From a plasmid, in sequence record NZ_OX291475.1: a stretch of DNA of 64,000 nt. The stretch is one strand, 5' to 3'. The position numbers were made by a program, and so were the translations under genes. The notes beneath the pieces were generated by a model. It saw nothing but the letters and a program-made list of their open reading frames with translations. It searched no databases and was not told where the DNA came from. Of this stretch, positions 21,361-41,580 are shown piece by piece. Within the stretch, counting starts at the first letter, position 1. Every line of letters starts with the position of its first letter.

Positions 21361-21376
21361 ATAAATTATACTTATT

Positions 21377-21793: not shown

Positions 21794-21795
21794 TC

Positions 21796-22730
21796 ATGTT
21801 TATGCTGGCTGACGTCAATTCGATGTACTGTGCCTGCGAACAGGTCTTCCGGCCGGATCTGAAAGGCCGTCCGGTGGCCGTGCTTTCGAATAACGACGGT
21901 GCCCTGGTGGCGATCAACCGGGAGGGAAAACAACTCGGTCTTAAACGCGGCATGCCATTTTTTCAGGCCAAAGAAATCATTAAAAATCAAAATGTCACTG
22001 TTTTCTCTAGCAATTATTCTTTGTACGGCGACATGTCGGCGCGCTGCATGACGATTTTAGAATCTCTCGCGCCGGCGATTACGATCTACAGCATCGACGA
22101 GGCATTCCTTCACGTTGCCGGCATCGATGCCACAGAGTCATTCGAAGACTATGGCCGGCGCGTTCGCGATACCGTTTTACAGCAGACGGGACTCACCTGC
22201 GGGATCGGTGTCGCCCAGACGATGACGCTTGCCAAACTCGCGAATCACGCTGCGAAAACCTGGCCGGCCACCGGTGGGGTTGTCGATCTGACGAACCGCG
22301 ATCGACAACGCAAATTGATGGGGCTGCTGCCAGTCAACGAAGTTTGGGGATGTGGGCGCCAGTTGACTAAAAAGCTGGCTGCGATGGGGATCACCACAGC
22401 ACTGCAGCTGGCCGACAGCAACCAGGCGTTGATCCGCAGGACGTTCGGGGTTGTGCTCGAGCGCACCGTGCGTGAACTGAACGGTGTGCCATGTATCTCA
22501 ATCGATGCGCTGCCGGCAAAGCAGCAGATCATCGTCAGCCGGTCATTTGGCCAGCGCGTTACGCAGCTGCAGGACATGCGCCAGGCGGTGTGCCAGTACG
22601 CCGAGCGGGCCGCCGAAAAACTTCGCCGAGAGAAGCAATATTGCCGGCACATTTCGGTGTTCGCGCGAACCAGCCCATTTTCGCCTCATGATCCCTATTA
22701 CGCGAACAGCAACAGCGTGCGGCTCATGCT
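21796..22730 (+). pseudogene. umuC: umuC 5' fragment (DNA polymerase V catalytic subunit), interrupted by transposon insertion
   Basis: MFMLADVNSMYCACEQVFRPDL.. start overlapping umuD stop; reading frame runs into transposon IR at 22731; missing C-terminus found in frame at 41248-41580. Confidence 0.85.
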
Positions 22731-24133
22731 GGGGTCAGTTTGGATATCGAAAATTATTGTACTATAAGGGCTTCCCCGGCATGTCAACGCCGGTGTTTAC
22801 GGTTTCTGTCTGCACTATAGTAAAAAAATAAAGGGGAGAGACTGCGGTACTATAAACGGTCATGATGAATCGTCATCGATTCGGACCCTGATGAAAGACG
22901 CTCGTGAGGCTCTAGTTCGTTAGTCGGGTACACTTGCCCTGTACAATAAGCAGATATACCTCACGGGGTCTAACCCTTTATCATCAACGAGTTGCAGAAC
23001 AGATGGTCATACAGCTTTGTACTTTAGCTGGCTGAGTACAACCTGAAATCATCACCGTAATGCAATGATGCCCAGCACAGTCTTGCATTTTTGGCAGCGA
23101 TGGCAACAACAGCGCGCCAGTATCCTCTGCGTTCGACCAGTGAGCAGACCCAACGACTGAATAAATCAGTCCTTTTCTCCGCCCCGATCAGTACCGAGCG
23201 GGCACCCTGAACCAGAAGTGTTCTCAGATACGAATCGCCAGCTTTCGTTATCCTGCCAAGCTTCGACTTTCCGCCGCTGCTGTACTGCGATGGTGTCAGT
23301 CCCAGCCAGGCTGCCAGCTGGCGCCCATTCTTAAAATCATGTGCATTACCGATACTGGCGACCAGCGCACAGGCCGTTGTGGGGCCAACGCCCTTCAATT
23401 CCATCAGCCGCTGACTGCGATGATCTGTTTTGGCCATGCGGGACAAAATTCGGTCATATTCAGCGATGTTATCTTCAATGCGAGCAACGTGCTCCAGCAA
23501 ATCATCAACACATTGCTGAACCTGAAGTGGTAAAGAATTCTTCTGCTCAAAAACTATGTGGCGCAGGGCATCTGTACTTTGTGGGGCGATAACGCCGAAT
23601 TCAGATATCAACCCCCGGAGACGATTATATGTTGCTGTTTTCTCTTCGATAAAACCCTGTCGGGTACGATGCAGACACTGCATTGCCTGCTGGCTCTCAT
23701 CCTTAACCGGCACAAACCGCATATGTGGGCGACGAACCGCCTCGCAGATAGCCTGAGCATCAGCTGCATCATTTTTCCCTGATTTACCAGCCATGCGGTA
23801 AGGCGATACAAATTTAGCGGCCATCAGACGCGGCTCATGACCATACTGCCGAAACAGTCTTGCCCAGTAATGAGCCCCGGAGCACGCCTCCATCCCGATA
23901 ACACAGGGCGGCAAACCAGCAATCAGCCCGGGAAGAGCTGCGCGGGTTACTCTGGATTTAACCAGAACGGTTTTGCCATTCTGGTCAACGCAATGAACAG
24001 CGAACACATTTTTAGCAAGATCGATACCGACAGTAGTAATGGTCATAACGAATCCCTCCGGGGTTGTGTTTACCCCATGATTGCACAAGAGTTAATCAGG
24101 CACATAATCAGGGGAAGTCCCTTCCATTCGTTA
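22731..24133 (-). mobile_element. IS110-family insertion sequence (copy 1) occupying the terminal inverted repeat of the outer transposon
   Basis: Inverted duplicate of 39845-41247; outer 28 bp GGGGTCAGTTTGGATATCGAAAATTATT and inner ..CATTCGTTAAG look like split halves of a Tn3-type IR; IS ends show AAGGG(A)CTTCCCC inverted repeats. Confidence 0.6.
23024..24088 (-). CDS. IS110-family transposase (DEDD)
   Basis: 354 aa; MTITTVGIDLAKNVFAVHCVDQNGK.. N-terminus; identical copy at 39890-40954(+). Confidence 0.85.
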   Translation of the reverse strand: MCNHGVNTTPEGFVMTITTVGIDLAKNVFAVHCVDQNGKTVLVKSRVTRAALPGLIAGLPPCVIGMEACSGAHYWARLFRQYGHEPRLMAAKFVSPYRMAGKSGKNDAADAQAICEAVRRPHMRFVPVKDESQQAMQCLHRTRQGFIEEKTATYNRLRGLISEFGVIAPQSTDALRHIVFEQKNSLPLQVQQCVDDLLEHVARIEDNIAEYDRILSRMAKTDHRSQRLMELKGVGPTTACALVASIGNAHDFKNGRQLAAWLGLTPSQYSSGGKSKLGRITKAGDSYLRTLLVQGARSVLIGAEKRTDLFSRWVCSLVERRGYWRAVVAIAAKNARLCWASLHYGDDFRLYSAS

Positions 24134-26672
24134 AGGTTATTTTTTGACCTGCCTAATTTAGCTGGCCTCAGCCGACGAAACTTACCGGCTGACGGTATCC
24201 GGTTGCTTTTCCATATATAATCGCCTGTCAGATTGATGTGTTCCCAGCCTAGCGGGGACAAATGCGACAGCAGTTGCTCGTTGATCTTCACTCCCTTACG
24301 CTTCAGAGCATCGACAGCTCTTTCCATATAGACGGTATTCCACAGGGATATGGCAGCTGTCAGGAGCGTCAGTCCACTGGCGCGATAGCTCTGATTTTCC
24401 GGTTTTCGGTCCCTGATTTCTCCCAGCCGGTGCATAAATACCGCTCGCGCCAGCGCGTTACGGGCTTCACCTTTATTCAGCCCCGCCTGTACCCGCCGAC
24501 GCAGTGCAGGATCGCGGAACCAGTCGAGCATAAACAGAGTTCGTTCAATACGGCCAATTTCTCTCAGTGCTTTGGCCAGCCCGTTTTGCTTGGGGTAGCT
24601 GGCAAGCTTTTTCAGCATCAGGGATGCCGTCACGGTTCCCTGCTTTATCGAGGTTGCCAGACGCAGCACTTCACGCCAGTGAATTTCGATCTCTTTCAGA
24701 TTCAGGCTGGTTGTTGATATCAGTGACTGAAGCGCCGGGTACTGGCCTGCTTTCCCTTTGATAAATAGCTTCTTGTCGTGGAGATCCCTGATTCGCGGAC
24801 AGAACGCAAATCCCAGCAGATGCATCAGGGCAAAGACATGATCGGTGAAACCCGCTGTATCGGTGTAATGCTCCCTGATTTCCAGGTCGCTTTCGTGGTA
24901 CAGCAAGCCATCGAGCACATGGGTTGAATCTCTGACCCGACTGATTATGCAGGTGTAAAACGGGCTGTATTGATCCGAAATATGGGTATAAAACTGACGT
25001 CCGGGCTCCTGCCCGTATTTCGGGTTAACCTGCCCTGCGTAGCGGCCTGATCTGCCTGTTCTGAAATTCTGTCCATCTGATGATGATGTTGTCCCGTCTC
25101 CCCAGAATGCCGCCAGCGGCCTTTTCCCCTGCGCGTTTACCAGCTCTGCAAGGGCTGCTGAATAGGTTTCGTCGCGGATGTACCATGCCTGAATATCTTC
25201 GAGTGATGATTTGGTGCTACCGGGGCAGGCTTCCGCCATTTTGGTCAGGCCAAGATTGATGCCATCCGCAAGAATGGTGGTGAGAAGCAGGCGGATATCG
25301 GGACGGGTAATGTCAGTTTTTATATGCGAAAAATGTCGGGTAAACGTCGTCCAGCTGTTTACCTCATCGAGAATTTCCGTGATTTTAGGGCGCGGTAGCA
25401 TGCTGTAAACCAGCTCTGCCAGCGGTGAAACCTGCACCGGAACGCTGTTATCCAGCGGAGAGACTTTTACGCCCCTGTAAGATATTTCCACATCGGGCAG
25501 TTCACCAAGGGCAGCCATGGCATTGACCTCTTCAAGCCTGGACTGAAGCAGGGTCATACGGCTGGTAATGTACTCATGATAATCAGCAGATACGGGAAGT
25601 GGCAGCGCCGGTGTGAGTTTGTCAAAGTCCTTTTCGGGAATGAGGTAATCATCAAAATTTTTGTAGCGGCGTGAGCCTTTAACCCAGATGTCCCCGGAAC
25701 GCAACGCCCCCTTAAGCTCGCTGAGCGCACAAAATTCATAGTACTGCCGGTCAATACCCGCAGGTGTAATTACCACCTTGCGCCAACTTTCTGGGACAAA
25801 CTCAAGCGGCGCGGTGGCCGGAACTTTACGTGACTGCTTCCGGTACATATCCTTGATCACAACCAGCGCATCAGCCAGAGGTTGCGCTGCCGGAGTTGCG
25901 ATTAACTGTAAAGCTGACAACATGCGCGGGGCATATTTCCGTAATGTGCTGTATTTCTCGGTAATAATATGCAGCGGGTCAAAATTATTTTTTCTGGCGA
26001 GATGGCGTGTTTCCTCCAGACTGGCGACAAATTCAGGCCATGGGAGTATGTTTTCTATTGCGAGCCATGGATCTCCCCCGGAATCACGGGCATCAGACAG
26101 CGCCTGACCGACATTGATGTACTGCCTCAGTTTTGACTGGATCAGCTTTCCGGTCTGCTGAAGGCGCTCAGCCTGTGTTCTTTTGGCTTTGCTGAAAAGG
26201 CTGTTCAGCATTCGCTCATGCAACTCAATCACTTCGTCTGTCAGTGTGGCTCTGGCTTCTTCCAGCACGCACACCAGGATCGCATGACGCCGGGCTGCTG
26301 AAAATCGGGTCAAATCCCGGCTGCTCATCTTTCGGCCTTCCCGCGCCAGTTTCAGCAACCGGTTCTGGTGAATGGTACGATCTATACCTTCCGGTAATGC
26401 CAGCGATTCAATGCTACTGAGCCGATCAAGGTGTTGCAGCACGTTCTTACCATTGATTTTACCCGGAGGTTGCAGAAGCCATGTCAGCCTGGAAGACTGA
26501 TTATCCGATGACTCAAGTAAACAATCCAGAGCATCCCTGTGAGCCGGAGTTAACGGGGCATTCAGGGTCTGAAACACGATTTTATCGCCGCCTGCCATGG
26601 CCTCAGCACAGGAACGCTCCACGACATCAATCGAGGGGATTATCACGTTGTTCTGCCGGAGCCAGACCAGTA
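24134..26672 (-). pseudogene. tnpA: Tn3-family transposase TnpA of outer transposon, C-terminal 85% (split by inner transposon; 3' end reads through into IS)
   Basis: ..[16 protein letters not shown].. DDE region; continues in frame with N-terminal piece at 35551-35990 when the 26673-35549 insert plus one CAGTA are removed. Confidence 0.8.
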
Positions 26673-26694
26673 GGGGTCGTCTCAGAAAACGGAA

Positions 26695-28020
26695 TCTATG
26701 GTCACTCCCGTTTTTGCAACACCGATTTTGACGACAAGTTGGCTTGCTTGAATCTATCCGGCGTCTGAATGGGATTTTATTCCCGCGCCTTGATGAGTTC
26801 CGCGCCTGATGAACCTCCAGAAAATATACGGCTTCAATGAGCCTTTCCGTTTTACAGGTTCCTCAACAGGCCGGTGGGCCGTTAGTATCATCAATATCAG
26901 TATTCGCAAAACCAGATCAGTAATTCTTTAAACCGGTGTATTTCTGCCGTTATGCTACATAAGTTTGCTGTCGTGCCGTTAGGGCCCAGGCTATTCTGGC
27001 CAGCTTGTTTGCCAGAGCACAAGTGACGACAAAGTTGCTTTTCCGGCACAGTAAATCCCTGACCCAATCGGCCAATTTGCCAGACTGGTGTTCCAGTTTT
27101 TGTATGAATACCCTGGCACATTGAACCAACAAAGTTCGGATCTTTTTATTACCTCGCTTACTAATTCCCAGCAATGTCGTCCTACCTCCCGTGCTGTACT
27201 GCCGAGGTACAAGCCCTGTTGCCGCCGCAAAGTCACGGCTGCTGGCGTACTGCTTCCCGTCGCCAATCTCAGTTGAAATAGTACTCGCTGTCAGTGTTCC
27301 GACGCAGGGAATGCTCAGCAAGCGCTGTCCAACCTCATCTTCGTCCAACTTTCGTTTCAACTGGGATTCCAAATCTTTAATCTGCTCAACAAGATAGTGA
27401 TAATGCTGTTGTAATTTCAGCAATAACTGGCTGAGGTAAAGAGGCAAACTATTATCCTCAAGAATGGTACTCAGTCGGCTAATAACGGCAGCTCCTCGGG
27501 GAACGCTAATGCCAAATTCCAGCAGAAAAGCATGCATTTGATTGGTTGTTTTTACCTTATCCTGAACCAGGGATTCACGGACACGATGCAGAGCCCGCAT
27601 TGCCTGCTGAGATTCCGTTCTGGGCTGCACAAAACGCATAGACGGACGCGATGCAGCTTCACAAATAGCTTCGGCGTCGACAAAGTCGTTTTTATTGCTT
27701 TTAACGAACGGGCGGACAAATTGTGGTGATATCAGCTTTGGGGAATGCCCCAACTCTTCCAACTTGCGTGCCATAAAGTGAGAACCGCCACAGGCTTCCA
27801 TTGCGATGGTTGTAGCGGGGCATGTCGCCAAAAATTCGATCAACTTTGGCCGGGTAAATTTTTTACGGTAAACAGCCTTCCCGCGACGATCCTGGCAATG
27901 AATATGGAAAGAGTTTTTACCCAGATCGATACCAATGAGCGCAATGTTTTCCATGATAGTTCTCCGAATGAAAGCCTGTCCTCAGCATAGTACCGGGAAG
28001 GAGGGAGTGACCATCTCATT
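26695..28020 (-). mobile_element. IS4321/IS5075-like IS110-family element (1326 bp), copy 1, inserted in left IR of inner transposon
   Basis: Inserted between IR positions 22/23; ends TCTATGGTCACTCCC ... GGGAGTGACCATCTCATT; identical inverted copy at 34202-35527. Confidence 0.75.
26950..27954 (-). CDS. IS110-family (IS1111-subgroup) transposase
   Basis: 334 aa; MENIALIGIDLGKNSFHIHCQDRRGK..; identical copy 34268-35272(+). Confidence 0.85.
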   Translation of the reverse strand: MENIALIGIDLGKNSFHIHCQDRRGKAVYRKKFTRPKLIEFLATCPATTIAMEACGGSHFMARKLEELGHSPKLISPQFVRPFVKSNKNDFVDAEAICEAASRPSMRFVQPRTESQQAMRALHRVRESLVQDKVKTTNQMHAFLLEFGISVPRGAAVISRLSTILEDNSLPLYLSQLLLKLQQHYHYLVEQIKDLESQLKRKLDEDEVGQRLLSIPCVGTLTASTISTEIGDGKQYASSRDFAAATGLVPRQYSTGGRTTLLGISKRGNKKIRTLLVQCARVFIQKLEHQSGKLADWVRDLLCRKSNFVVTCALANKLARIAWALTARQQTYVA

Positions 28021-28032
28021 AAATAAAGCACG

Positions 28033-28590
28033 CTAAGCGTGCGTGGAGGCTGGCACCCAGCGGTACAGCGTCGGAATGGACACGCCGAGGTTCTTGGCCA
28101 CGTCCTTGGGCGGCACCCCGCTGGCCAGCAGCTTCTTGGCCGACTCGATCTTGCTGTCGGTCATCTTCGGCTTGCGGCCGCCTTTGCGGCCGAGCTGCTT
28201 GGCGACTTCCAGCCCGGCGCGGGTGCGCTCGACGGTCAGCTCGCGCTCCATTTCGGCAAGGCTCGCCATGACGTGGAAGAAGAACCGCCCGGATGGTGTG
28301 CCGGTGTCGATGGAGTCGGTGAGGCTCCTGAACTGGACACCGTGCTTGTGCAGATCGCCGACCAGATCGACCAGTTGCTTGACCGACCGGCCCAGCCGGT
28401 CGAGCTTCCAGACGACCAAAGTATCGCCTTCGCGCAGCATTTCGAGCGTCTTGGCCAAGCCAGGCCGGTCTGCCCGCGTGCCACTCACCTTGTCCTCGAA
28501 GACCTTTTTACATCCGGCCTTGCTCAAGGCTTCGCGTTGCAGCTCCAGGTTCTGATCCTGCGTCGAGACGCGCGCATAGCCAATCAACAT
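28033..28590 (-). CDS. tnpR: serine resolvase TnpR of inner transposon
   Basis: MLIGYARVSTQDQNLELQ.. catalytic Ser; C-terminal HTH. Confidence 0.85.
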   Translation of the reverse strand: MLIGYARVSTQDQNLELQREALSKAGCKKVFEDKVSGTRADRPGLAKTLEMLREGDTLVVWKLDRLGRSVKQLVDLVGDLHKHGVQFRSLTDSIDTGTPSGRFFFHVMASLAEMERELTVERTRAGLEVAKQLGRKGGRKPKMTDSKIESAKKLLASGVPPKDVAKNLGVSIPTLYRWVPASTHA

Positions 28591-28955
28591 GGCTTGTCTC
28601 GCGCCCGGTCGATGCGTTCCTGCATCGCCTGCATCACTTCTTCGTGGGTGTACGATCTGGCGTTGGCGTCGGTGGCTTGCCGCAGGGCTTCCTCAACCTC
28701 GCGCGTCATCCGCTCGTAATCCTCCGGCCACAGCGCTTGCTCCATGCGCAGCGACGCCTGACCCAGCAGGTGCAGCAGGCTGAACAGCCGCATGTCGTTG
28801 GTGGCGACGATGCGCTCCCGAATCTGCTCCTGAATAGCTTCGCTAGCCCGATGCGCTTGTGGTGTGGCAGTCCCCTCGTAGTCAGCGGGGAATTCCGCTT
28901 CCTCGGCAATCCTTGCCCAGGCGCTGGCCAGCGCCTCGATGGTTGACGTGCTCAT
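28584..28955 (-). CDS. hypothetical transposon cargo protein
   Basis: Start chosen at MSTSTIEALASAW; 124 aa. Confidence 0.4.
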   Translation of the reverse strand: MSTSTIEALASAWARIAEEAEFPADYEGTATPQAHRASEAIQEQIRERIVATNDMRLFSLLHLLGQASLRMEQALWPEDYERMTREVEEALRQATDANARSYTHEEVMQAMQERIDRARDKPC

Positions 28956-29464
28956 TTCCGCCGCTCCTGTGCTCTTTGGCGAATCAACCGGCCAAGGGGC
29001 CTCGACGCGAAAACCAGCAGCATCACGCCTATCGGATACCAGGTCGAGAAGACCACCAAGGCATCGAAGGCTGGCCGTCCGGTGTTGGTAGGCAGTACGG
29101 CGGTCACAGCCATCAACCCGCCGACCGTCCAGATGATGCGCCACACGTAGGGCATCACGCGGGGCACGTAGCCGTCATCGAAAGCGGTCTGGTAGTAGCG
29201 GCGCAGGCCGCGCTCGGCAAGCGCCTGGCGCTGCCGCTCCGACAGCGCATCCGTCCGGCCATACCAGCGCCGGAATGGTGGACAGCGCAGCAGCAAAGGG
29301 GTGAAGAGGATCATCACCGCCACGATCGCGACACCCCACGCCATGACGGCGCCGGCATCGGGCCGCTTGGCGTTCTCGATCACGGGCGCGAAGACGCCCG
29401 GAGCACCGATCATCCAGAACAGCGCAATGTGCTGATGGAAGGAGAGCTTCATTTGCTCATCCAC
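28952..29464 (-). CDS. hypothetical integral membrane protein (transposon cargo)
   Basis: 170 aa with 3-4 hydrophobic segments. Confidence 0.45.
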   Translation of the reverse strand: MDEQMKLSFHQHIALFWMIGAPGVFAPVIENAKRPDAGAVMAWGVAIVAVMILFTPLLLRCPPFRRWYGRTDALSERQRQALAERGLRRYYQTAFDDGYVPRVMPYVWRIIWTVGGLMAVTAVLPTNTGRPAFDALVVFSTWYPIGVMLLVFASRPLGRLIRQRAQERRK

Positions 29465-29775
29465 TTGCGCAGCAGGCGCTTTTTCAGGGAGGCGCGTTCT
29501 TGCGGGTTGCGTCCCTTGTGATTGGCGATGCGATCCGCCGTGGCGGCCTGGCGCTTGACGGGCCAGTAGGAGCGGCCATCCTTGCCCATCGACCAGACGC
29601 TGCTGGCCTGGTTTTCCAGCAGGGGCAGATGGGCGCTCAGGGCTTCGGGCGACGCGCTGGTCAGCGCCGTGCGCTCACGGGTGCGCCAGCGCTGATGCCA
29701 GAGCTTCTTGTCCTCGCGCTCGCTGCCGCAGGTCGTGTGCCCGACGATGGGTGTTTTGCGGCGGCTGCGGCTCAT
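29449..29775 (-). CDS. hypothetical basic protein (transposon cargo)
   Basis: 108 aa, Arg/Lys-rich. Confidence 0.35.
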   Translation of the reverse strand: MSRSRRKTPIVGHTTCGSEREDKKLWHQRWRTRERTALTSASPEALSAHLPLLENQASSVWSMGKDGRSYWPVKRQAATADRIANHKGRNPQERASLKKRLLRKWMSK

Positions 29776-30029
29776 AACGTAGTGGTCTCCAAGAACATTC
29801 AGGACTGATCCCAGGCGTCGATGGTCAAGACCTGATCGGCAGGACAGGCGGCTACGCGGTCGGGAACTGGATGGTGTTCAGTCTCATGCCGACCCCATTC
29901 GATTGATCGCGTCGCTTGCGGCACGCTGCGACGCAAGGAGGTTTGCGACCTGGTTTAGCAGCCGTGTCCGCTGCATGTCTGTTACCTATCTCCCCGACCG
30001 CTCATTGGACCAACTCCAGAGATTGGGCT

Positions 30030-30386
30030 CTATCGCTCAGCCAATACGAAACCGGCATTGGCTGATGCCACAACCGAGACTAACACAAATGGCTCGGTAC
30101 CTGTATTTCGCGCCCCGTGCACTTGGCCCGGTCTTGCCACGGCTATCTCACCTTCCCTGAGGGCACGAACAATCCCATTGCCCTGAAAGTAATCAGCCAT
30201 TCCCGACAAAACAGTCCACGTGTCTTGGCCGTGAGGATGAATGTGAGCCGCAATTTCCTGCCCGGGATGGACATGCCAAACCACGATAATTGAGTCTCGG
30301 GTTTCAAGCACAACGGAACGAATAGGCTCGCCTTCGGACGGCTGAACATACTCGGCTACAGAAAATATTCTCGATTCAACAGTCAT
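30030..30386 (-). CDS. cupin-domain protein
   Basis: ..HVHPGQEIAAHIHPHGQDTWTVLSG.. double-His cupin motifs; start chosen at MTVESRIF. Confidence 0.55.
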   Translation of the reverse strand: MTVESRIFSVAEYVQPSEGEPIRSVVLETRDSIIVVWHVHPGQEIAAHIHPHGQDTWTVLSGMADYFQGNGIVRALREGEIAVARPGQVHGARNTGTEPFVLVSVVASANAGFVLAER

Positions 30387-30777: not shown

Positions 30778-31070
30778 ATCGGTTGCGCCTCCGCGAGCAC
30801 CTTGGCCCGGAACTTCGGCGGCAGGTCGCCGGGAGTCAGCAGATCGACGTCAACGCCGAGCAGCGATTTCAGTTCTTCTTCCAAATCGCCCAAGTCCAAC
30901 AACGTGGCACCGGGCAGCGCATCGACCAACAGGTCGAGGTCGCTGCCATCCCGGTCGGTGCCATGCAGCACCGAGCCGAAGACGCGCGGGTTCGCGGCGC
31001 GAAAGCGGCCTACCGCTTCACGCACTGCGCTTCGCTTCATGTCAAGCACAACAGACGGTCGCATGCGCAT
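30774..31070 (-). CDS. mnt: MNT-type nucleotidyltransferase antitoxin
   Basis: 98 aa; ..VFGSVLHGTDRDGSDLDLLVD.. GSx(n)DxD motif; overlaps hepT by 4 nt. Confidence 0.7.
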   Translation of the reverse strand: MRMRPSVVLDMKRSAVREAVGRFRAANPRVFGSVLHGTDRDGSDLDLLVDALPGATLLDLGDLEEELKSLLGVDVDLLTPGDLPPKFRAKVLAEAQPI

Positions 31071-31222: not shown

Positions 31223-34189
31223 ATGCCCCGCCGTTCGATCCTCTCCGCCGCCGAGCGCGAAAGCCTGCTGGCGTTGCCGGACACCAAGGATGAGTTGATC
31301 CGTCACTACACGTTCAGCGAAAGCGACCTCTCCATCATCCGGCAGCGGCGCGGCCCGGCCAATCGGCTGGGCTTCGCGGTGCAGCTCTGCTACCTGCGCT
31401 TTCCCGGCGTCATCCTTGGCGCTGATGAGCCACCGTTCCCGCCATTGCTGAGACTGGTCGCCAACCAGCTCAAGGTCGGCATCGAAAGCTGGGACGAGTA
31501 CGGGCAGCGTGAGCAGACCCGACGCGAGCACCTGGTCGAGCTGCAAACGGTGTTCGGCTTCCAGCCGTTCACGATTGGCCACTACCGGCAGGCTGTCCAG
31601 TTGCTGACCGAGCTGGCCATGCAAACCGACAAGGGCATCGTGCTGGCCAGAGCCTTGATCGAGCACCTGCGGCGGCAGTCGGTCATTGTGCCCGCCCTCA
31701 ACGCCGTCGAGCGGGCGAGCGCCGAAGCGATTACCCGCGCCAACCGGCGTCTCTACGACGCCTTGGCTGAGCCGCTGACGGACGTGCATCGCCGTCGCCT
31801 CGACGATCTGCTCAAGCGCCGCGACAACGGCAAGACGACGTGGCTGGCCTGGCTGCGGCAATCCCCGGTCAAACCGAACTCGCGGCACATGCTGGAACAC
31901 ATCGAACGCCTCAAGGCGTGGCAGGCGCTCGACCTGCCCTCCGGCATCGAGCGGCTGGTTCACCAGAACCGGCTGCTCAAGATCGCCCGCGAGGGCGGCC
32001 AGATGACGCCCGCCGACCTGGCGAAGTTCGAGCCGCAGCGGCGTTACGCGACCCTGGTGGCGCTCGCCATCGAGGGCATGGCCACCGTCACCGACGAAAT
32101 CATCGACCTGCATGACCGCATCCTGGGCAAGCTGTTCAATGCCGCCAAGAACAAGCATCAGCAGCAGTTCCAGGCATCCGGCAAGGCGATCAATGCCAAG
32201 GTGCGGCTGTTCGGGCGCATCGGCCAGGCGCTGATCGAGGCCAAGCAAGCGGGCCGCGATCCGTTCGCCGCCATCGAGGCCGTCATGTCCTGGGATGCTT
32301 TCGCCGAGAGCGTCACCGAAGCGCAGCGGCTCGCGCAACCCGAGGACTTCGATTTCCTGCACCGCATCGGCGAGAGCTACGCCACGCTGCGCCGCTACGC
32401 GCCGGAATTTCTCGACGTGCTCAAGTTGCGGGCCGCGCCCGCCGCCAAGGACGTACTCGACGCCATCGAGGTGCTGCGCAGCATGAACAGCGACAACGCC
32501 CGCAAGGTGCCCACCGACGCGCCGACCGAGTTCATCAAGCCGCGCTGGCAGAAGCTGGTGATGACCGACACCGGCATCGACCGGCGCTACTACGAACTGT
32601 GCGCGCTGTCGGAGCTGAAGAACGCGCTGCGCTCCGGCGACATCTGGGTGCAAGGCTCGCGCCAGTTCAAGGACTTCGAGGACTACCTGGTGCCGCCCGC
32701 GAAATTCGCCAGCCTCAAGCAGGCCAGCGAATTGCCGCTGGCCGTGGCCACCGATTGCGACCAGTACCTGCATGACCGGCTGACGCTGCTGGAAACGCAG
32801 CTCGCCACCGTCAACCGCATGGCGCTGGCCAACGAGCTGCCGGACGCCATCATCACGGAGTCGGGCCTGAAGATCACGCCGCTCGATGCGGCGGTGCCCG
32901 ATACCGCACAGGCCCTGATCGACCAGACGGCGATGATCCTACCGCACGTCAAGATCACCGAATTGCTGCTGGAGGTAGACGAATGGACGGGCTTCACCCG
33001 GCACTTCGCCCACCTGAAGTCAGGCGACCTGGCCAAGGACAAAAACCTGTTGCTGACCACGATCCTCGCCGACGCGATCAACCTGGGCCTGACCAAGATG
33101 GCGGAATCGTGCCCCGGCACGACCTACGCCAAGCTGGCCTGGCTGCAAGCCTGGCACATCCGCGACGAAACCTACGGGGCGGCACTGGCCGAGCTGGTCA
33201 ACGCGCAGTTCCGACATCCCTTCGCCGGGCATTGGGGCGACGGCACCACGTCATCGTCGGACGGCCAGAACTTCCGCACCGGCAGCAAGGCCGAGAGCAC
33301 CGGCCACATCAATCCGAAATACGGCAGCAGCCCAGGGCGGACGTTCTACACCCATATCTCCGACCAGTACGCGCCGTTCCACACCAAGGTCGTGAACGTC
33401 GGCGTGCGCGACTCGACCTACGTGCTCGACGGCCTGCTGTATCACGAATCCGACCTGCGGATCGAGGAGCACTACACCGACACGGCAGGGTTCACGGACC
33501 ACGTCTTCGCGTTGATGCACCTGCTGGGCTTCCGCTTCGCCCCGCGCATTCGTGACCTGGGCGACACCAAGCTCTACATCCCGAAGGGCGATGCCACCTA
33601 CGAGGCGTTGAAACCGATGATCGGCGGCACGCTCAACATCAAGCACGTCCGCGCCCATTGGGATGAAATCCTGCGGATGGCCACCTCGATCAAGCAGGGC
33701 ACGGCGACGGCCTCGCTGATGCTCAGGAAGCTTGGCAGCTACCCGCGCCAGAACGGCCTGGCCGTCGCCCTGCGTGAGCTGGGACGCATCGAGCGCACAC
33801 TGTTCATCCTGGACTGGCTGCAAAGCGTCGAGCTGCGCCGCCGCGTGCATGCCGGGCTGAACAAAGGCGAGGCGCGCAACGCGCTGGCCCGCGCCGTGTT
33901 CTTCAACCGCCTGGGGGAAATCCGCGACCGCAGCTTCGAGCAGCAGCGCTACCGGGCCAGCGGCCTCAACCTGGTGACGGCGGCCATCGTGCTATGGAAC
34001 ACGGTCTATCTGGAGCGGGCCGCGAACGCCTTGCGTGGCCACGGTCAAGCCGTCGATGACGGCCTGTTGCAGTACCTGTCGCCGCTCGGCTGGGAGCACA
34101 TCAACCTGACCGGCGATTACCTCTGGCGCAGCAGCGCCAAGATCGGCGCGGGCAAGTTCAGGCCGCTACGGCCGCTGCAACCGGCTTAG
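31223..34189 (+). CDS. tnpA: Tn21-subgroup Tn3-family transposase TnpA (full length, 988 aa)
   Basis: [20 protein letters not shown].. N-terminus; stop codon TAG lies inside the inner IR half as in Tn21. Confidence 0.9.
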
Positions 34190-34201
34190 CGTGCTTTATT
34201 T

Positions 34202-35527
34202 AATGAGATGGTCACTCCCTCCTTCCCGGTACTATGCTGAGGACAGGCTTTCATTCGGAGAACTATCATGGAAAACATTGCGCTCATTGGTATCGATCTG
34301 GGTAAAAACTCTTTCCATATTCATTGCCAGGATCGTCGCGGGAAGGCTGTTTACCGTAAAAAATTTACCCGGCCAAAGTTGATCGAATTTTTGGCGACAT
34401 GCCCCGCTACAACCATCGCAATGGAAGCCTGTGGCGGTTCTCACTTTATGGCACGCAAGTTGGAAGAGTTGGGGCATTCCCCAAAGCTGATATCACCACA
34501 ATTTGTCCGCCCGTTCGTTAAAAGCAATAAAAACGACTTTGTCGACGCCGAAGCTATTTGTGAAGCTGCATCGCGTCCGTCTATGCGTTTTGTGCAGCCC
34601 AGAACGGAATCTCAGCAGGCAATGCGGGCTCTGCATCGTGTCCGTGAATCCCTGGTTCAGGATAAGGTAAAAACAACCAATCAAATGCATGCTTTTCTGC
34701 TGGAATTTGGCATTAGCGTTCCCCGAGGAGCTGCCGTTATTAGCCGACTGAGTACCATTCTTGAGGATAATAGTTTGCCTCTTTACCTCAGCCAGTTATT
34801 GCTGAAATTACAACAGCATTATCACTATCTTGTTGAGCAGATTAAAGATTTGGAATCCCAGTTGAAACGAAAGTTGGACGAAGATGAGGTTGGACAGCGC
34901 TTGCTGAGCATTCCCTGCGTCGGAACACTGACAGCGAGTACTATTTCAACTGAGATTGGCGACGGGAAGCAGTACGCCAGCAGCCGTGACTTTGCGGCGG
35001 CAACAGGGCTTGTACCTCGGCAGTACAGCACGGGAGGTAGGACGACATTGCTGGGAATTAGTAAGCGAGGTAATAAAAAGATCCGAACTTTGTTGGTTCA
35101 ATGTGCCAGGGTATTCATACAAAAACTGGAACACCAGTCTGGCAAATTGGCCGATTGGGTCAGGGATTTACTGTGCCGGAAAAGCAACTTTGTCGTCACT
35201 TGTGCTCTGGCAAACAAGCTGGCCAGAATAGCCTGGGCCCTAACGGCACGACAGCAAACTTATGTAGCATAACGGCAGAAATACACCGGTTTAAAGAATT
35301 ACTGATCTGGTTTTGCGAATACTGATATTGATGATACTAACGGCCCACCGGCCTGTTGAGGAACCTGTAAAACGGAAAGGCTCATTGAAGCCGTATATTT
35401 TCTGGAGGTTCATCAGGCGCGGAACTCATCAAGGCGCGGGAATAAAATCCCATTCAGACGCCGGATAGATTCAAGCAAGCCAACTTGTCGTCAAAATCGG
35501 TGTTGCAAAAACGGGAGTGACCATAGA
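34202..35527 (+). mobile_element. IS4321/IS5075-like element, copy 2, inserted in right IR of inner transposon
   Basis: Exact inverted duplicate of 26695-28020. Confidence 0.75.
34268..35272 (+). CDS. IS110-family (IS1111-subgroup) transposase, second copy
   Basis: Identical to 26950-27954(-). Confidence 0.85.
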   Translation: MENIALIGIDLGKNSFHIHCQDRRGKAVYRKKFTRPKLIEFLATCPATTIAMEACGGSHFMARKLEELGHSPKLISPQFVRPFVKSNKNDFVDAEAICEAASRPSMRFVQPRTESQQAMRALHRVRESLVQDKVKTTNQMHAFLLEFGISVPRGAAVISRLSTILEDNSLPLYLSQLLLKLQQHYHYLVEQIKDLESQLKRKLDEDEVGQRLLSIPCVGTLTASTISTEIGDGKQYASSRDFAAATGLVPRQYSTGGRTTLLGISKRGNKKIRTLLVQCARVFIQKLEHQSGKLADWVRDLLCRKSNFVVTCALANKLARIAWALTARQQTYVA

Positions 35528-35550
35528 TTCCGTTTTCTGAGACGACCCCC

Positions 35551-35990
35551 AGTAGTTCTTCGGCCAGGAGAATACCTTTATCGGTGCGCGTCGCCATCGG
35601 CAGCAGGTGTGTAATACAGTCCTGCTGTATTTTGCCGGTGAACGCTTTTAAGCCAAGATAGCGGTACAGTTCGGTTAAATGTTCGCGTCGCGTGGTTTCC
35701 CTGCCGGAAAGGTAAGCTGGCCAGAGATCCCCGGTAAGTTTTAGCCTGCTGGCGATATGCTTCAGCAGCGCATCAGAGGGAGGGATTTTTTTATCCGGGG
35801 TAAAGCCGACATTTTTCAGATAGCAAAGAAGGACGGCAAAACCAAAACGGCTGGCAGGTTTACGGTGGGCACTGATAAGTGCCAGATCATGTTCACTGAA
35901 ATACGCCATCCGGGTCAGCGTTAACTCTTCGTCCGGTAATGCCAGTAATGATTCTCTTTCCGACAGAGAAAGAATCTGCCTCCTTGCCAT
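35551..35990 (-). pseudogene. tnpA: N-terminal 147 codons of outer-transposon tnpA (separated from rest by inner transposon)
   Basis: [22 protein letters not shown].. ; frame reads into IR of inner transposon after ..AEELLG. Confidence 0.8.
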
Positions 35991-36157
35991 ATAGTTTCCC
36001 TCGTAAATTATCCGATGCGGTATTTTTAACAGAAATGCTTATCGCATAAGGGTACACCCTGACGCCATATTCAAAACGTGACGGCACACGATGAATGACA
36101 TAACCTATATGCGATAGATTAAATGCAATAACTTAAATGCGATAACGTGGTGGAAAA
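35991..36157. promoter_or_regulatory. res (resolution) site / divergent promoter region between tnpA and tnpR of outer transposon
   Basis: Divergent tnpA/tnpR arrangement as in Tn3; repeated AAATGCGATA / AAATGCAATA subsite-like motifs. Confidence 0.45.
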
Positions 36158-36793
36158 ATGTTCATCAGAGCTTATTTAAGGGCATCGACGGAAGATCAGT
36201 TCGCCGATCGGGCAAAAGAGATGCTGGAGCAGTTTGTTCAGGAGCGGGGACATAAAATAGCCAGTTACTACCGGGAGAACATCAGCGGTACAAAACTTGA
36301 CCGCCCGGAACTGGGGCGCTTACTGATGGACAGTCACCGCAATGATATTTTACTGGTCGAGCAGATAGACCGTCTGACCCGTCTGAGCAACAGCGACTGG
36401 ATGACGCTGAAAAAGCAAATCGAGCAACACGAGCTGCGGATTGTCAGCCTCGATGTACCCACCTCATGGCAGGCGCTGTCAGATAAAGATCCTTCGCAGG
36501 CTGACCCAATCACCCGCGCCGTGATAACCGCCATCAATAATATGCTTATCGACCTGATGGCCTCGATGTCGCATAAGGACTGGCTGAGCCGCCGCCATCG
36601 GCAGAAGCAGGGAATTGAACGGGCACATACGCTGGGAAAATACCGGGGCAAACAGGCCGATCAGGAACGACATAAGAAAGTTCTGTATTACCGACAGGTC
36701 AAGAAACTGAGCATAAGAGAAACTGCTGAAGCCACCGGTTACAGCACATCTCAGGTCTGCAGGATTCAGGCCCTGTTCAGGCCTGAAAATTAA
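36158..36793 (+). CDS. tnpR: serine resolvase TnpR of outer transposon
   Basis: 211 aa; MFIRAYLRASTEDQ.. catalytic Ser; C-terminal HTH (..RETAEATGYSTSQVCRI..). Confidence 0.8.
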   Translation: MFIRAYLRASTEDQFADRAKEMLEQFVQERGHKIASYYRENISGTKLDRPELGRLLMDSHRNDILLVEQIDRLTRLSNSDWMTLKKQIEQHELRIVSLDVPTSWQALSDKDPSQADPITRAVITAINNMLIDLMASMSHKDWLSRRHRQKQGIERAHTLGKYRGKQADQERHKKVLYYRQVKKLSIRETAEATGYSTSQVCRIQALFRPEN

Positions 36794-36820
36794 GCACATT
36801 TTCTGAGGCTGGAAATCAAC

Positions 36821-37672
36821 TCATGCTGACAGCCTGAGCCTGTTGGCATGGTAAGCAATGTGCTCACCAATAAAGCTGGAAATGAAATAATAGCTGTGGT
36901 CGTAACCAGTATGATATCGGAATGATGTGTTGATGTTCATCTCGTTGCACACTCTTTCAAGACTTTTAGTGCGTAACTGATCTTCATAAAAGGCGTCACT
37001 TAATCCCTGGTCAATAAAAATTTCTGGTAATTTCGCACCCTGTAAAATGAGACTGACGGGATCGTAGTGCTCCCACGTTTTTTTATTTTCACCCAGGTAC
37101 GCGGTGAATGCCTGTTGTCCCCATGGCACCTGAGAAGGTGACACTATTGGTGAAAATGCCGATACACTCACATATTCATCAGGATTTCGCAGCGACAGAA
37201 CCAGCGCTCCCAGCCCCCCCATGGAGTGACCGGATATTGATTTCCTTGATGTTACAGGTAAATGCTCCATGACAACATCCGGAAGCTCATGGAGAATATA
37301 GTCATACATCCTGTAATGCGTGTTCCACGGATGTTCCGTCGCGTTCAGATAAAATCCGGCACCCTGGCCCAGATCGTAGCTGTCAGCATCTGCGACATGC
37401 TCTCCACGGGGACTGGTATCAGGAACAACGACGATGATGTTGTTCCTGGCGGCATAATGCTGCATACCCGATTTGGTGATGAAATTCTGCTCCGTACAGG
37501 TCAGACCCGAGAGCCAGTACAGGACCGGCAGTTTTTCTGTTGCTGCTTTGGGGGGAAGATAAACACCGAAATTCATCCCACAATTAAGTGTTTGTGAATT
37601 ATGGCGGTATACGTTTTGCCAGCCGCCAGCGCTGGCATGCTGCTCGATGAGTTCCATCAGCCTCTGTCTCAT
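36821..37672 (-). CDS. frmB: S-formylglutathione hydrolase (esterase D)
   Basis: 283 aa; GHSMGG nucleophile elbow; close to E. coli FrmB/YeiG. Confidence 0.85.
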   Translation of the reverse strand: MRQRLMELIEQHASAGGWQNVYRHNSQTLNCGMNFGVYLPPKAATEKLPVLYWLSGLTCTEQNFITKSGMQHYAARNNIIVVVPDTSPRGEHVADADSYDLGQGAGFYLNATEHPWNTHYRMYDYILHELPDVVMEHLPVTSRKSISGHSMGGLGALVLSLRNPDEYVSVSAFSPIVSPSQVPWGQQAFTAYLGENKKTWEHYDPVSLILQGAKLPEIFIDQGLSDAFYEDQLRTKSLERVCNEMNINTSFRYHTGYDHSYYFISSFIGEHIAYHANRLRLSA

Positions 37673-37722
37673 GGTTATTTCCCCTGACAGGGAGTCAGGG
37701 GAAGTCTCTTTATAGCCGGACG

Positions 37723-38121
37723 TCAGATGAACGTATAAGCCGTGATTTTGTTACCCGCAGGGTCTCGCAGGTAGGCTGCATAGGCTCCAGGGAGATGGCT
37801 GCGCGGGCCAGGCTGACCTTCATCTTTCCCTCCGGCGGCAAGGCCCGCGGCGTGGAAAGCATCAACTTCTTCCGGACTTGCAGCTGCAAAGCCGACAGTA
37901 ACGCCGTTGGCCGATGGCGCTTCACCGTTGCCCGGATGTGCAATAATAAAGGCTGGCTTTTCGCGACCATAAAGTACCCAGCCATTGCCAAACGGGCCGA
38001 GGTTATTGATGCCAAGCGTACCGAGGACAGCATCGTAAAAATCAGCGGATTTTTCAACATCGGATGCACCGATGAAGACGTGGGAAAAAACGTCATTACC
38101 AGAAATTACAGGTGTTGCCAT
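37723..38121 (-). CDS. glyoxalase/VOC-family protein
   Basis: 132 aa; VOC-fold pattern (HVFIGASDVEKSADFY..). Confidence 0.6.
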   Translation of the reverse strand: MATPVISGNDVFSHVFIGASDVEKSADFYDAVLGTLGINNLGPFGNGWVLYGREKPAFIIAHPGNGEAPSANGVTVGFAAASPEEVDAFHAAGLAAGGKDEGQPGPRSHLPGAYAAYLRDPAGNKITAYTFI

Positions 38122-38162
38122 GATCCATTTCCTTCAGTTGGTTTGACTCAGTTAAGACGCTA

Positions 38163-39302
<1,140 letters not shown>

Positions 39303-39578
39303 CTATTTAAGATAGGCGCGAACCAGTTCAATCGTATCGTCAACGGATTTACTGATTTCATGGCTGTAGCTGTCATTCTGGTCAAAGGTTTCCCGTATGT
39401 GGCTCTCGAGCACCTCTGCCATAAGACCGTTAGCTGCTCCGCGAACGGCAGCTATCTGCTGAAGAATGGAACGGCATTCAGCACCATTTTCCAGCGCTCT
39501 TTCCAGAGCATCAATCTGACCCCGAATGCGGCGAACACGGGTAAGGACCTTTTTTTTCTCTTCAGGAGTACTGGGCAT
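39303..39578 (-). CDS. frmR: FrmR/RcnR-family formaldehyde-responsive repressor
   Basis: 91 aa; N-terminal Pro2, CsoR-like helix pattern. Confidence 0.75.
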
Positions 39579-39604
39579 TATTTACCTCACCATTTTTGAT
39601 TTTA

Positions 39605-39657
39605 TATACTATAGTGGAGTATATAATTATCGTCAATGCATACTCCACTATAGTATA
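39605..39657. promoter_or_regulatory. candidate FrmR operator: 17-bp perfect inverted repeat ATACTATAGTGGAGTAT ... ATACTCCACTATAGTAT
   Basis: Located 27 nt upstream of frmR start in the promoter region. Confidence 0.55.
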
Positions 39658-39844
39658 ACTAAGAATAAACATAACTACCTTTATTTACGATATAAATCAT
39701 ATATTTATATTATTTTTGGCTGTGATACTGTCGGAAGGAAAGTTACTACAAAAATGATATCTACCGATACGGGATTTGGGGCATAGGCGGTTCTGTTAAA
39801 TTTCGCCAGATATTGGCTCATCATTGATGGTCAAAAAATGAGCC

Positions 39845-41247
39845 TAACGAATGGAAGGGACTTCCCCTGATTATGTGCCTGATTAACTCTTGTGCAATCA
39901 TGGGGTAAACACAACCCCGGAGGGATTCGTTATGACCATTACTACTGTCGGTATCGATCTTGCTAAAAATGTGTTCGCTGTTCATTGCGTTGACCAGAAT
40001 GGCAAAACCGTTCTGGTTAAATCCAGAGTAACCCGCGCAGCTCTTCCCGGGCTGATTGCTGGTTTGCCGCCCTGTGTTATCGGGATGGAGGCGTGCTCCG
40101 GGGCTCATTACTGGGCAAGACTGTTTCGGCAGTATGGTCATGAGCCGCGTCTGATGGCCGCTAAATTTGTATCGCCTTACCGCATGGCTGGTAAATCAGG
40201 GAAAAATGATGCAGCTGATGCTCAGGCTATCTGCGAGGCGGTTCGTCGCCCACATATGCGGTTTGTGCCGGTTAAGGATGAGAGCCAGCAGGCAATGCAG
40301 TGTCTGCATCGTACCCGACAGGGTTTTATCGAAGAGAAAACAGCAACATATAATCGTCTCCGGGGGTTGATATCTGAATTCGGCGTTATCGCCCCACAAA
40401 GTACAGATGCCCTGCGCCACATAGTTTTTGAGCAGAAGAATTCTTTACCACTTCAGGTTCAGCAATGTGTTGATGATTTGCTGGAGCACGTTGCTCGCAT
40501 TGAAGATAACATCGCTGAATATGACCGAATTTTGTCCCGCATGGCCAAAACAGATCATCGCAGTCAGCGGCTGATGGAATTGAAGGGCGTTGGCCCCACA
40601 ACGGCCTGTGCGCTGGTCGCCAGTATCGGTAATGCACATGATTTTAAGAATGGGCGCCAGCTGGCAGCCTGGCTGGGACTGACACCATCGCAGTACAGCA
40701 GCGGCGGAAAGTCGAAGCTTGGCAGGATAACGAAAGCTGGCGATTCGTATCTGAGAACACTTCTGGTTCAGGGTGCCCGCTCGGTACTGATCGGGGCGGA
40801 GAAAAGGACTGATTTATTCAGTCGTTGGGTCTGCTCACTGGTCGAACGCAGAGGATACTGGCGCGCTGTTGTTGCCATCGCTGCCAAAAATGCAAGACTG
40901 TGCTGGGCATCATTGCATTACGGTGATGATTTCAGGTTGTACTCAGCCAGCTAAAGTACAAAGCTGTATGACCATCTGTTCTGCAACTCGTTGATGATAA
41001 AGGGTTAGACCCCGTGAGGTATATCTGCTTATTGTACAGGGCAAGTGTACCCGACTAACGAACTAGAGCCTCACGAGCGTCTTTCATCAGGGTCCGAATC
41101 GATGACGATTCATCATGACCGTTTATAGTACCGCAGTCTCTCCCCTTTATTTTTTTACTATAGTGCAGACAGAAACCGTAAACACCGGCGTTGACATGCC
41201 GGGGAAGCCCTTATAGTACAATAATTTTCGATATCCAAACTGACCCC
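39845..41247 (+). mobile_element. IS110-family insertion sequence (copy 2) occupying the other IR of the outer transposon
   Basis: Exact inverted duplicate of 22731-24133; inner flank ..CATTCGTTAG vs ..CATTCGTTAAG on the other side. Confidence 0.6.
39890..40954 (+). CDS. IS110-family transposase, second copy
   Basis: Identical to 23024-24088(-). Confidence 0.85.
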   Translation: MCNHGVNTTPEGFVMTITTVGIDLAKNVFAVHCVDQNGKTVLVKSRVTRAALPGLIAGLPPCVIGMEACSGAHYWARLFRQYGHEPRLMAAKFVSPYRMAGKSGKNDAADAQAICEAVRRPHMRFVPVKDESQQAMQCLHRTRQGFIEEKTATYNRLRGLISEFGVIAPQSTDALRHIVFEQKNSLPLQVQQCVDDLLEHVARIEDNIAEYDRILSRMAKTDHRSQRLMELKGVGPTTACALVASIGNAHDFKNGRQLAAWLGLTPSQYSSGGKSKLGRITKAGDSYLRTLLVQGARSVLIGAEKRTDLFSRWVCSLVERRGYWRAVVAIAAKNARLCWASLHYGDDFRLYSAS

Positions 41248-41580
41248 ATGCTGGCCACGCAAGATACCCGCGACATCGTTGCGGCGGCTGAGAAAGCCCT
41301 CGATGCCATCTGGCGTGACGGTTTTCGCTATCAGAAAGCGGGCATTATGCTGAACGATTTCTGCGACAAGTCAGGCCAGATCGACCTATTCGACGAACAG
41401 CCACCGCGCGCCGGCAGTGAACAGCTGATGAAGGTTATCGATGGCATAAACCAGTCCGGGTTGGGGAAAGTTTGGTTTGCTGGCCAAGGGATCAATAAAG
41501 CCTGGACAATGCGTCGCGAACTGTTATCCCCTTGTTACACAACGCGCCTGCAAGATATACCGGTAGCAAGGTTGGCTTAA
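41248..41580 (+). pseudogene. umuC: umuC 3' fragment (C-terminal 110 codons)
   Basis: MLATQDTRDIVAAAEKALDAIWRDGFRYQKAGIMLNDF..SPCYTTRLQDIPVARLA matches the UmuC C-terminus and is in frame with 21796-22730 across the ATGCT duplication. Confidence 0.85.

Follow-up and report, generated by a model that had tools for sequence, protein, structure and literature searches.

The sequence analysed here, hereafter the window, is a 64,000-nucleotide (nt) stretch of a plasmid (record NZ_OX291475.1), and its positions are used throughout. It carries a umuDC operon, encoding a DNA polymerase V (Pol V), in which umuC is split by an insert of 18.5 kb. The insert is built wholly from named elements: the formaldehyde-resistance transposon Tn6901 (also Tn6399), a second, TnPa38-like transposon nested in the tnpA gene of Tn6901, and two pairs of insertion sequences (ISs), one IS1618-like and one of the IS4321/IS5075 type (written IS4321/5075), which lie in the terminal inverted repeats (IRs) of the two transposons. 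The features are listed below in order of position (+ or -, strand; aa, amino acids; ORF, open reading frame).

21345-21360, +: LexA (SOS) box CTGTATATATATACAG, 17 bp upstream of umuD
21377-21793, +: umuD, intact, 138 aa
21796-22730, +: umuC 5' fragment, 311 codons and 2 nt; its ORF runs on into the IR and IS to a stop at 22767 (323 aa)
22726-22730: ATGCT, left copy of the Tn6901 target duplication
22731-22762, +: outer 32 bp of the Tn6901 IR, holding the native tnpA stop codon (22754-22756, minus strand)
22763-24129, -: IS1618-like element, copy 1, 1367 bp; transposase at 23024-24046, 3' non-coding region at 22763-23023
24130-26672, -: inner part of this Tn6901 IR and the 3' 2.5 kb of tnpA
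26668-26672: CAGTA, first copy
26673-35549: inner ISPa38/TnPa38-like transposon
26695-28021, -: IS4321/IS5075-type element, copy 1, 1327 bp, splitting the 38-bp IR into 22 + 16 bp
28033-28590, -: inner tnpR, serine recombinase, 185 aa (PF00239 is listed for a same-sized gene in a related record)
30376-31070, -: HepT-like RNase and MNT nucleotidyltransferase pair (toxin-antitoxin), between tnpR and tnpA
31223-34189, +: inner tnpA, intact, 988 aa (NF033527)
34201-35527, +: IS4321/IS5075-type element, copy 2, 1327 bp, identical to copy 1
35550-35554: CAGTA, second copy
35555-35990, -: 5' part of Tn6901 tnpA; a fusion ORF (35454-35990) runs into the inner IR and IS
35991-36157: tnpA-tnpR intergenic region, by its position the presumed res site
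36158-36793, +: Tn6901 tnpR, serine recombinase, 211 aa
36821-39578, -: formaldehyde detoxification cargo, whole
36821-37672, -: fghA/frmB
37723-38121, -: VOC/glyoxalase gene
38163-39272, -: frmA
39303-39578, -: frmR
39849-41215, +: IS1618-like element, copy 2, 1367 bp, in the frmR-end IR, identical to copy 1
41216-41247, -: outer 32 bp of the other Tn6901 IR
41248-41252: ATGCT, right copy of the Tn6901 target duplication
41253-41580, +: umuC 3' fragment, 109 codons and stop, comprising the end of IMS_C and all of DUF4113

In-silico excision of the insert and its parts

The umuC gene was rejoined in silico by taking out 22731-41247 together with one copy of ATGCT. Joining 21796-22730 to 41253-41580 produced a 1263-nt gene encoding 420 aa with no internal stops, which scored 657.9 bits against the UmuC model NF002955 (cutoff 431) and held the three Pfam domains IMS, IMS_C and DUF4113. 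An earlier note on this stretch had predicted this in-frame rejoining, had read ATGCT at both junctions as a Tn3-family target duplication, and had called for comparison with a sister plasmid carrying intact umuDC; the rejoining and the duplication were borne out. The intact umuC of the Serratia nevei plasmid pCUVET18-1371.2 is likewise 1263 nt long, aligned to the rejoined gene without gaps at 87% nt identity and 389/421 aa positions (92% aa identity), and carries a single ATGCT at the position matching the window junction. The left junction reads CGGCTCATGCT / GGGGTCAGTTTGG at 22730/22731 (in a longer reading past the break, GGGGTCAGTTTGGATATCG), and the right junction reads CCAAACTGACCCC / ATGCTGGCCACG at 41247/41248 (in a longer reading before the break, CGATATCCAAACTGACCCC).

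The nested insertion was reversed in the same way. Two copies of CAGTA (26668-26672 and 35550-35554) border the GGGGTCGTCTCAGAAAACGGAA tips at 26673 and 35549, and removal of 26673-35549 with one CAGTA left a single continuous outer tnpA reading frame. The outer tnpA is thus split by a second Tn3-family transposon, as had been described, with the correction that the tnpA-derived DNA comprises 24130-26672 and 35555-35990, in place of the earlier limits of 24134 and 35551. When both 1367-bp ISs were deleted along with the inner transposon and one CAGTA, the outer element came to exactly 6901 bp and its restored TnpA to a single ORF of 995 aa (NF033527, 1127.1 bits, cutoff 500). The cleaned sequence was matched from 1 to 6901 at 100% and in one piece by many Enterobacter, Klebsiella and Edwardsiella plasmids in PLSDB, where 219 records hold at least 80% of it. 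By this length and these full-length matches the outer element is Tn6901 (= Tn6399a), the 100% identity being to plasmid copies other than that of Rts1. Tn6901 was first found in the Proteus vulgaris plasmid Rts1 (AP004237), took its name from its length of 6901 bp before being renamed Tn6399a, and has the layout IRL-tnpA-res-tnpR-frmB-glo-frmA-frmR-IRR with 5-bp direct repeats; Tn6399b is Tn6399a with IS1618 at the tnpA end (PMC6737455, PMC6339943, PMC6498974).

The gene content of the outer element agrees with this layout. It bears the marks of the Tn3 family, namely IRs of about 38 bp beginning GGGG, a Tn3-type DDE TnpA and a 5-bp duplication, and its IR tips at 22731 and 41247 are identical over 32 bp. 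FghA, FrmA and FrmR scored above the curated cutoffs of TIGR02821, TIGR02818 and NF008464, the VOC/glyoxalase gene was recognised by PF00903, and the serine recombinase gene gave NCBIfam matches below the family cutoffs, with PF00239 listed. The last two native tnpA codons and the stop sit in the IR tip (22754-22762, minus strand) and are cut off by the IS. In their place, the IS1618-like insertion exchanges the normal TnpA end (NLNVQ and stop) for a 19-aa tail read from the IS (24070-24129, 22754-22762), which explains why some records annotate a transposase of 1012 aa and not 995 aa (CP067618).

The inner element measures 8877 bp with its two IS copies and 6223 bp once both 1327-bp ISs are deleted, a step that restores its 38-bp IR from segments of 22 + 16 bp. 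The cleaned sequence was matched from 1 to 6223 at 100% in a single piece in many PLSDB plasmids (269 records hold at least 80% of it), and this form is often met on plasmids of Klebsiella, Citrobacter and Serratia. Its TnpA scored 1313.6 bits with NF033527 and differs by one residue (G669 for E) from WP_003100881.1, labelled 'Tn3-like element ISPa38 family transposase' by the Prokaryotic Genome Annotation Pipeline (PGAP). The genes run tnpR, three small ORFs, a cupin gene, the HepT/MNT toxin-antitoxin pair and tnpA, and the placement of HepT/MNT between tnpR and tnpA resembles that in other Tn3-family transposons. Neither a mer operon nor a class 1 integron (In2) was found among the cargo of the inner element, so that the name 'Tn21-type', given to it previously, is right for the IR subgroup only, and Tn21 proper was ruled out. 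Judged by these sequences, the inner element is an ISPa38/TnPa38-like Tn3-family transposon with Tn21-subgroup IRs. Tn5403 was also considered and rejected. The core of the inner transposon (28022-34200) has 63% G+C, compared to about 50% in the backbone, Tn6901 and both ISs, which is consistent with a Pseudomonas-type origin of the ISPa38-like element. In Klebsiella pneumoniae, a form of ISPa38 has been reported with 96% coverage of, and 99% identity to, the 6455-bp element of Pseudomonas aeruginosa (PMC12466754).

The cleaned 6901-bp and 6223-bp products, each with end-to-end, single-piece matches at 100% in many independent plasmids, are the decisive test of the element boundaries. Each 5-bp duplication has a chance expectation of about 1/1024.

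Insertion sequences in the four terminal repeats

A repeat scan revealed two pairs of perfect inverted repeats produced by the four IS copies, which the earlier note had missed: 22730-24149 with 39829-41248 (1420 bp) and 26666-28038 with 34184-35556 (1373 bp). All four terminal IRs are broken by insertions of the IS1111 group, the two outer ones by IS1618-like copies and the two inner ones by IS4321/IS5075-type copies, with IS boundaries set against uninterrupted IRs in relatives. The copies within each pair are identical, and the 64-kb window contains no further copies of either. The 340-aa and 334-aa transposases scored 353 and 341 bits, respectively, against the IS110-family model NF033542 (cutoff 140) and share 37% identity with each other; PF01548 and PF02371 are listed for the 334-aa protein.

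Both IS types entered their targets at fixed positions. The IS1618-like element lies after the first 32 bp of the Tn6901 IR, at GGGGTCAGTTTGGATATCGAAAATTATTGTAC / GTTA (in short form GGATATCGAAAATTATTGTAC / GTTA), and the IS4321/IS5075-type element lies 22 bp into the inner IR, at GGGGTCGTCTCAGAAAACGGAA / AATAAAGCACGCTAAG. Within each type the two copies agree in their position in the IR and in how they are oriented to it, and exact excision restores known sequences with no duplication. The ends of the IS4321-type element are TAATGAG + ATGGTCACTCCC and GGGAGTGACCAT + AGA, giving 12-bp subterminal IRs with extensions of 7 bp and 3 bp; those of the IS1618-like element are GAATGG + AAGGGACTTCCCC and GGGGAAGCCCTT + ATA, with one indel and extensions of 6 bp and 3 bp. 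Subterminal IRs with short asymmetric extensions, 6-7 bp on the left and 3 bp on the right, are typical of the IS1111 group (PMC11187229), and the terminal IRs of Tn21-type transposons are known to be targeted by IS4321 and IS5075 again and again, in independent events (PMC8269217, PMC11187229). The copies in pCUVET18-1371.2 that PGAP labels 'IS4321 family' are identical to the 1327-bp IS. The 1367-bp IS is present at 99% identity or more in 193 plasmids and is 88.8% identical in nt sequence to a Yersinia pestis copy annotated 'IS1618 family'. Between plasmids, the IS copies in the inner IR differ by up to 5-7%, a divergence that fits repeated independent IS invasion.

The target specificity of these ISs may have an RNA basis. 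In the IS1111 group, the non-coding region downstream of tnp yields a seekRNA or bridge RNA with short matches to both target strands (PMC11187229). The regions 3' of tnp span 261 nt in the IS1618-like and 255 nt in the IS4321-type element, and both fold into a stem, an internal loop and a small hairpin. Within the internal loop of both ISs, a stretch of 9-10 nt recurs unchanged in the target, directly next to the insertion point; the 5' strand of the loop is identical to the target bottom strand at that point (TTATTGTAC for the Tn6901 IR, AAAACGGAAA for the Tn21-type IR), while the 3' strand resembles the target top strand across the junction. These matches are consistent with, and not proof of, the ISs following the published seekRNA/bridge-RNA mechanism. 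Several results temper this reading. When the non-coding regions were shuffled, junction-abutting 9-mers still turned up in about 1.3% of cases with either IS, which makes the support modest; under a looser test allowing a match anywhere in the target, 180/2000 shuffles (9%) did as well for the IS1618-like element; the cross-control of guide matches returned a low-complexity 9-mer; and an Rfam scan of 20500-42500 at E ≤ 0.1 gave no curated RNA family, bridge RNA included. The reading therefore draws on the junction-abutting test and on the loop geometry that the two ISs share. We regard it as an even bet that the IS1618-like element is an RNA-guided IS1111-type element programmed for the Tn6901-type repeat, and that occupation of both ends by such ISs turns transposons into immobilised, RecA-invertible cassettes.

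Sister sequences and insertion history

A sister of the window plasmid is pQC08_2 of S. marcescens QC08 (AP028558.1), which is 99.7% identical to window 1-21795 and 100% identical to window 41581-64000. The left backbone aligns in three pieces, 21.8 kb of the window against 24.5 kb of pQC08_2 (AP028558.1 26048-50564), which implies an indel of about 2.7 kb between the two plasmids upstream of umuD. The umuC/ATGCT/IR junctions and the tnpA/CAGTA/IR junction of pQC08_2 are the same as those of the window, and on the tnpA side of the CAGTA junction the two are 100% identical, all differences lying within the IS. In pQC08_2, however, the Tn6901 IRs are uninterrupted, and it is the frmR end, not the tnpA end, that adjoins the N-terminal part of umuC. 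The draft contig BQCS01000045.1 shares these junctions and likewise has uninterrupted IRs and an interior reversed relative to the window: contig positions 1-6142 are 100% identical to window 16621-22762, and 6142-10622 run backwards along the window from 39849 to 35369, with 2 mismatches. The uninterrupted Tn6901 IRs of the two sisters read GGGGTCAGTTTGGATATCGAAAATTATTGTACGTTA(A/G)G... Compared with both sisters, then, the window has an IS1618-like element in each Tn6901 IR and everything between the two copies inverted, while the 32-bp tips and ATGCT are unchanged. In PLSDB, no record reached 80% coverage, either for the full 20.7-kb region or for the left umuC/IR/IS junction, and the window arrangement of four IS copies with an inverted interior was not found there. 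The nested junction of tnpA with the inner transposon occurs in PLSDB in this plasmid lineage only, with one record covering it.

The relatives also record other rearrangements of the same modules. At 10565-10720 of the compared locus, pQC08_2 shows the IR and tnpA of a second Tn6901-like element, diverged in sequence (GGATATAGAAA instead of GGATATCGAAA, for instance). It interrupts the inner tnpA after about 440 bp; the remainder of that gene is missing, as is one IS4321-type copy. A further Tn6901-family transposon seems to have inserted there and then to have recombined with the resident one. The larger QC08 plasmid pQC08_1 (AP028557.1) carries a 5' fragment of Tn6901 tnpA joined to a complete inner transposon. 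This module (9226-20537 of the compared locus) encodes an identical 178-aa fusion protein, has IS copies that diverge by 5-7%, and is followed immediately by an extra IS4321-type copy, which suggests that the nested module has been exchanged between plasmids. On pCUVET18-1371.2 the same inner transposon is found elsewhere (3001-11880 of the compared locus), flanked by TGGAG, with IS copies showing 0 mismatches to those of the window.

We propose the following history, and put the probability of this account as a whole (umuC inactivated by Tn6901, a nested TnPa38-like element, IS-plugged IRs and an inversion) at about 85%. The window would represent a Serratia conjugative plasmid, a sister of S. 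marcescens pQC08_2, in which replicative transposition placed the 6901-bp Tn6901 at about codon 311 of umuC and duplicated ATGCT. Then, or already before, the 6223-bp ISPa38/TnPa38-like transposon would have struck Tn6901 tnpA and duplicated CAGTA. Later, an IS4321/IS5075-type element would have entered both IRs of the inner transposon and an IS1618-like element both those of Tn6901, at 32 bp from the tip, each presumably by way of a DEDD transposase guided by a seekRNA or bridge RNA from the 3' non-coding region. These insertions would have created the perfect inverted repeats of about 1.4 kb, and homologous recombination between the IS1618-like copies would have inverted the interior, with the 32-bp tips and ATGCT staying put. 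Four ISs and two transposons make at least six insertions, to which the simplest account adds a single inversion between the 1.4-kb IS copies, provided that the orientation does not stem from an ambiguous assembly.

The earlier note had seen here a fully reconstructable two-step history, that is, two clean transpositions, a Tn3-family element into umuC and then a Tn21-type element into its tnpA, making up the 18.5-kb nest. Both 5-bp duplications and both in-frame rejoinings on which that account was built are real. As a complete account it is nonetheless refuted, and we give it next to no credence: four IS copies break all four IRs, end-to-end matches to the known 6901-bp and 6223-bp transposons appear only after the ISs are removed, the interior is reversed in sister sequences, and the inner element lacks Tn21 cargo. 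Hardly more credible is that Tn6901 entered the same umuC pentamer independently in two lineages, in opposite orientations and with no inversion. Tn3-family elements can reuse preferred target sites, and identical IR tips give the same junction sequence in either orientation; yet the backbones are 99.7-100% identical and share the same duplicated pentamer, and the nested junction is 100% identical on the tnpA side and confined in PLSDB to this lineage, so that two identical double events are very unlikely. Independent insertions in opposite orientations were rejected on the shared backbone, pentamer and nested junction.

Two further alternatives are unlikely but carry more weight. The orientation of the interior opposite to that of pQC08_2 and BQCS01000045.1 might reflect an assembly choice or a mixed population in which the segment flips back and forth. 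The arms are 100% identical over 1420 bp, shorter reads cannot phase the interior, and the sole difference from BQCS01000045.1 at the junction is the IS insertion with a reversed continuation. Against this, there is no positive sign of misassembly, and recombination between inverted repeats is expected in a RecA+ host, so that a true inversion is no less natural; the same recombination would also give rise to a mixed population, which makes the two readings overlap. It is also conceivable, though we think it improbable, that the inner transposon entered Tn6901 tnpA at another location and that the nested composite then moved into umuC with TnpA supplied in trans. The second, diverged Tn6901-like copy in pQC08_2 is compatible with such an order, as is the presence of part of the nested junction on pQC08_1 in the same strain, and movement in trans is plausible. 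A nested composite with both Tn6901 ends, however, was found at no other location in PLSDB, and insertion into a resident Tn6901 is the simplest reading.

Some observations weigh against the history that we favour. The inversion is seen by comparison only, and with perfect inverted repeats of 1.4 kb an assembler could have settled on either orientation arbitrarily, or the two may coexist. Which transposon inserted first is not provable from sequence, since a Tn6901 with a disrupted tnpA could be moved in trans and related Tn6901 copies occur in the same lineage. The copy of the inner transposon on pCUVET18-1371.2 would mean either that the IS-plugged transposon was still mobile or that the IS re-invaded both IRs after transposition. 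Finally, the name IS1618 is provisional, deriving from the 88.8% match and the published description of Tn6399b.

Consequences and comparison with known systems

Upstream of the insert, umuD matched NF007621 at 141.5 bits (cutoff 110) and its SOS box is in place, in agreement with the earlier view of an intact umuD and a disabled Pol V. UmuC is broken after residue 311, inside IMS_C (residues 242-357, the little-finger domain), and DUF4113 (368-417) is detached. With the C-terminal domain lost and the cut inside the little-finger domain, it is a sound inference that the truncated 323-aa UmuC should not form an active Pol V, while LexA-regulated umuD remains. In E. coli UmuC, the C-terminal part that is detached here contains the clamp-binding-like QIDLF motif. 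An exact-protein look-up of the 323-aa UmuC gave no record, so that the IS-bearing junction, when the gene is called in this way, is absent from that protein collection. A second CTGT-N8-ACAG match, CTGTGCCTGCGAACAG, lies at 21828-21843 (+) inside the start of umuC; its spacer is not AT-rich, and it is probably a chance match, as 18/100 shuffles gave at least two matches. Directly upstream of the LexA box and umuD is a gene for an SOS response-associated peptidase (SRAP, YedK-like) at 20461-21180 (+), and the order SRAP-umuD-umuC recurs in the S. nevei plasmid and in BQCS01000045.1, which suggests a conserved plasmid cluster for DNA-damage tolerance.

Barring precise excision of the ISs, neither transposon is expected to move: Tn6901 because its tnpA is broken and both its IRs are split, and the inner transposon, despite an intact tnpA, because both its IRs are split. 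On the history proposed above, a Serratia conjugative plasmid lineage would have lost an SOS-inducible mutagenic polymerase to a formaldehyde-resistance transposon. The components and processes are all already described, and the same insertion of Tn6901 in umuC is present in deposited sequences; the main value of the analysis lies in correct annotation, and the understanding of these systems is unchanged. The locus also serves as a teaching example of how exact in-silico excision validates element boundaries, of how IR-targeting IS110-family elements mislead on transposon boundaries and create long inverted repeats, and of how such repeats leave the orientation of an interior unstable or beyond the resolution of short reads. 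Should the RNA-guided reading of the IS1618-like element be true, this IS and Tn6901 would join IS4321/IS5075 and Tn21 as a second natural pairing of an 'end-parasite' IS with a transposon, and the window and its sisters free of the IS would be a caught-in-the-act example of unit transposons turned into invertible cassettes.

Each part of the locus has a known counterpart. The umu genes resemble plasmid umuDC/mucAB-type Pol V operons in having a LexA box, a umuD with its Ala-Gly cleavage site region, umuC following after a one-gene gap, and a rejoined UmuC that fits the full-length model; they differ in that umuC is inactivated by insertion. The cleaned outer element shares with Tn6901 its length, gene order, 5-bp duplication and 100% identity to many Enterobacterales copies, and an IS110-family insertion at the tnpA end is already known as Tn6399b and also present in CP067618; unlike Tn6901/Tn6399, the window copy has an IS in both IRs, a tnpA split by a transposon and an interior inverted relative to its sisters. 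The inner element has in common with ISPa38/TnPa38 a TnpA one residue apart, tnpR, passenger ORFs and 5-bp duplications, and departs from it in being 6223 bp and not 6455 bp long and in having both IRs interrupted. The ISs in the inner IRs agree with IS4321 and IS5075 in their 1327-bp length, 334-aa DEDD transposase, IR targeting and lack of a duplication; they differ in nothing material. At the sequence level, and with modest statistical support, both IS types resemble the seekRNA/bridge RNA-guided IS110/IS1111 elements of Siddiquee et al. (2024) and Durrant et al. (2024), in that the two loop strands of the region downstream of tnp match the bottom and the top strand of the target at the insertion point.

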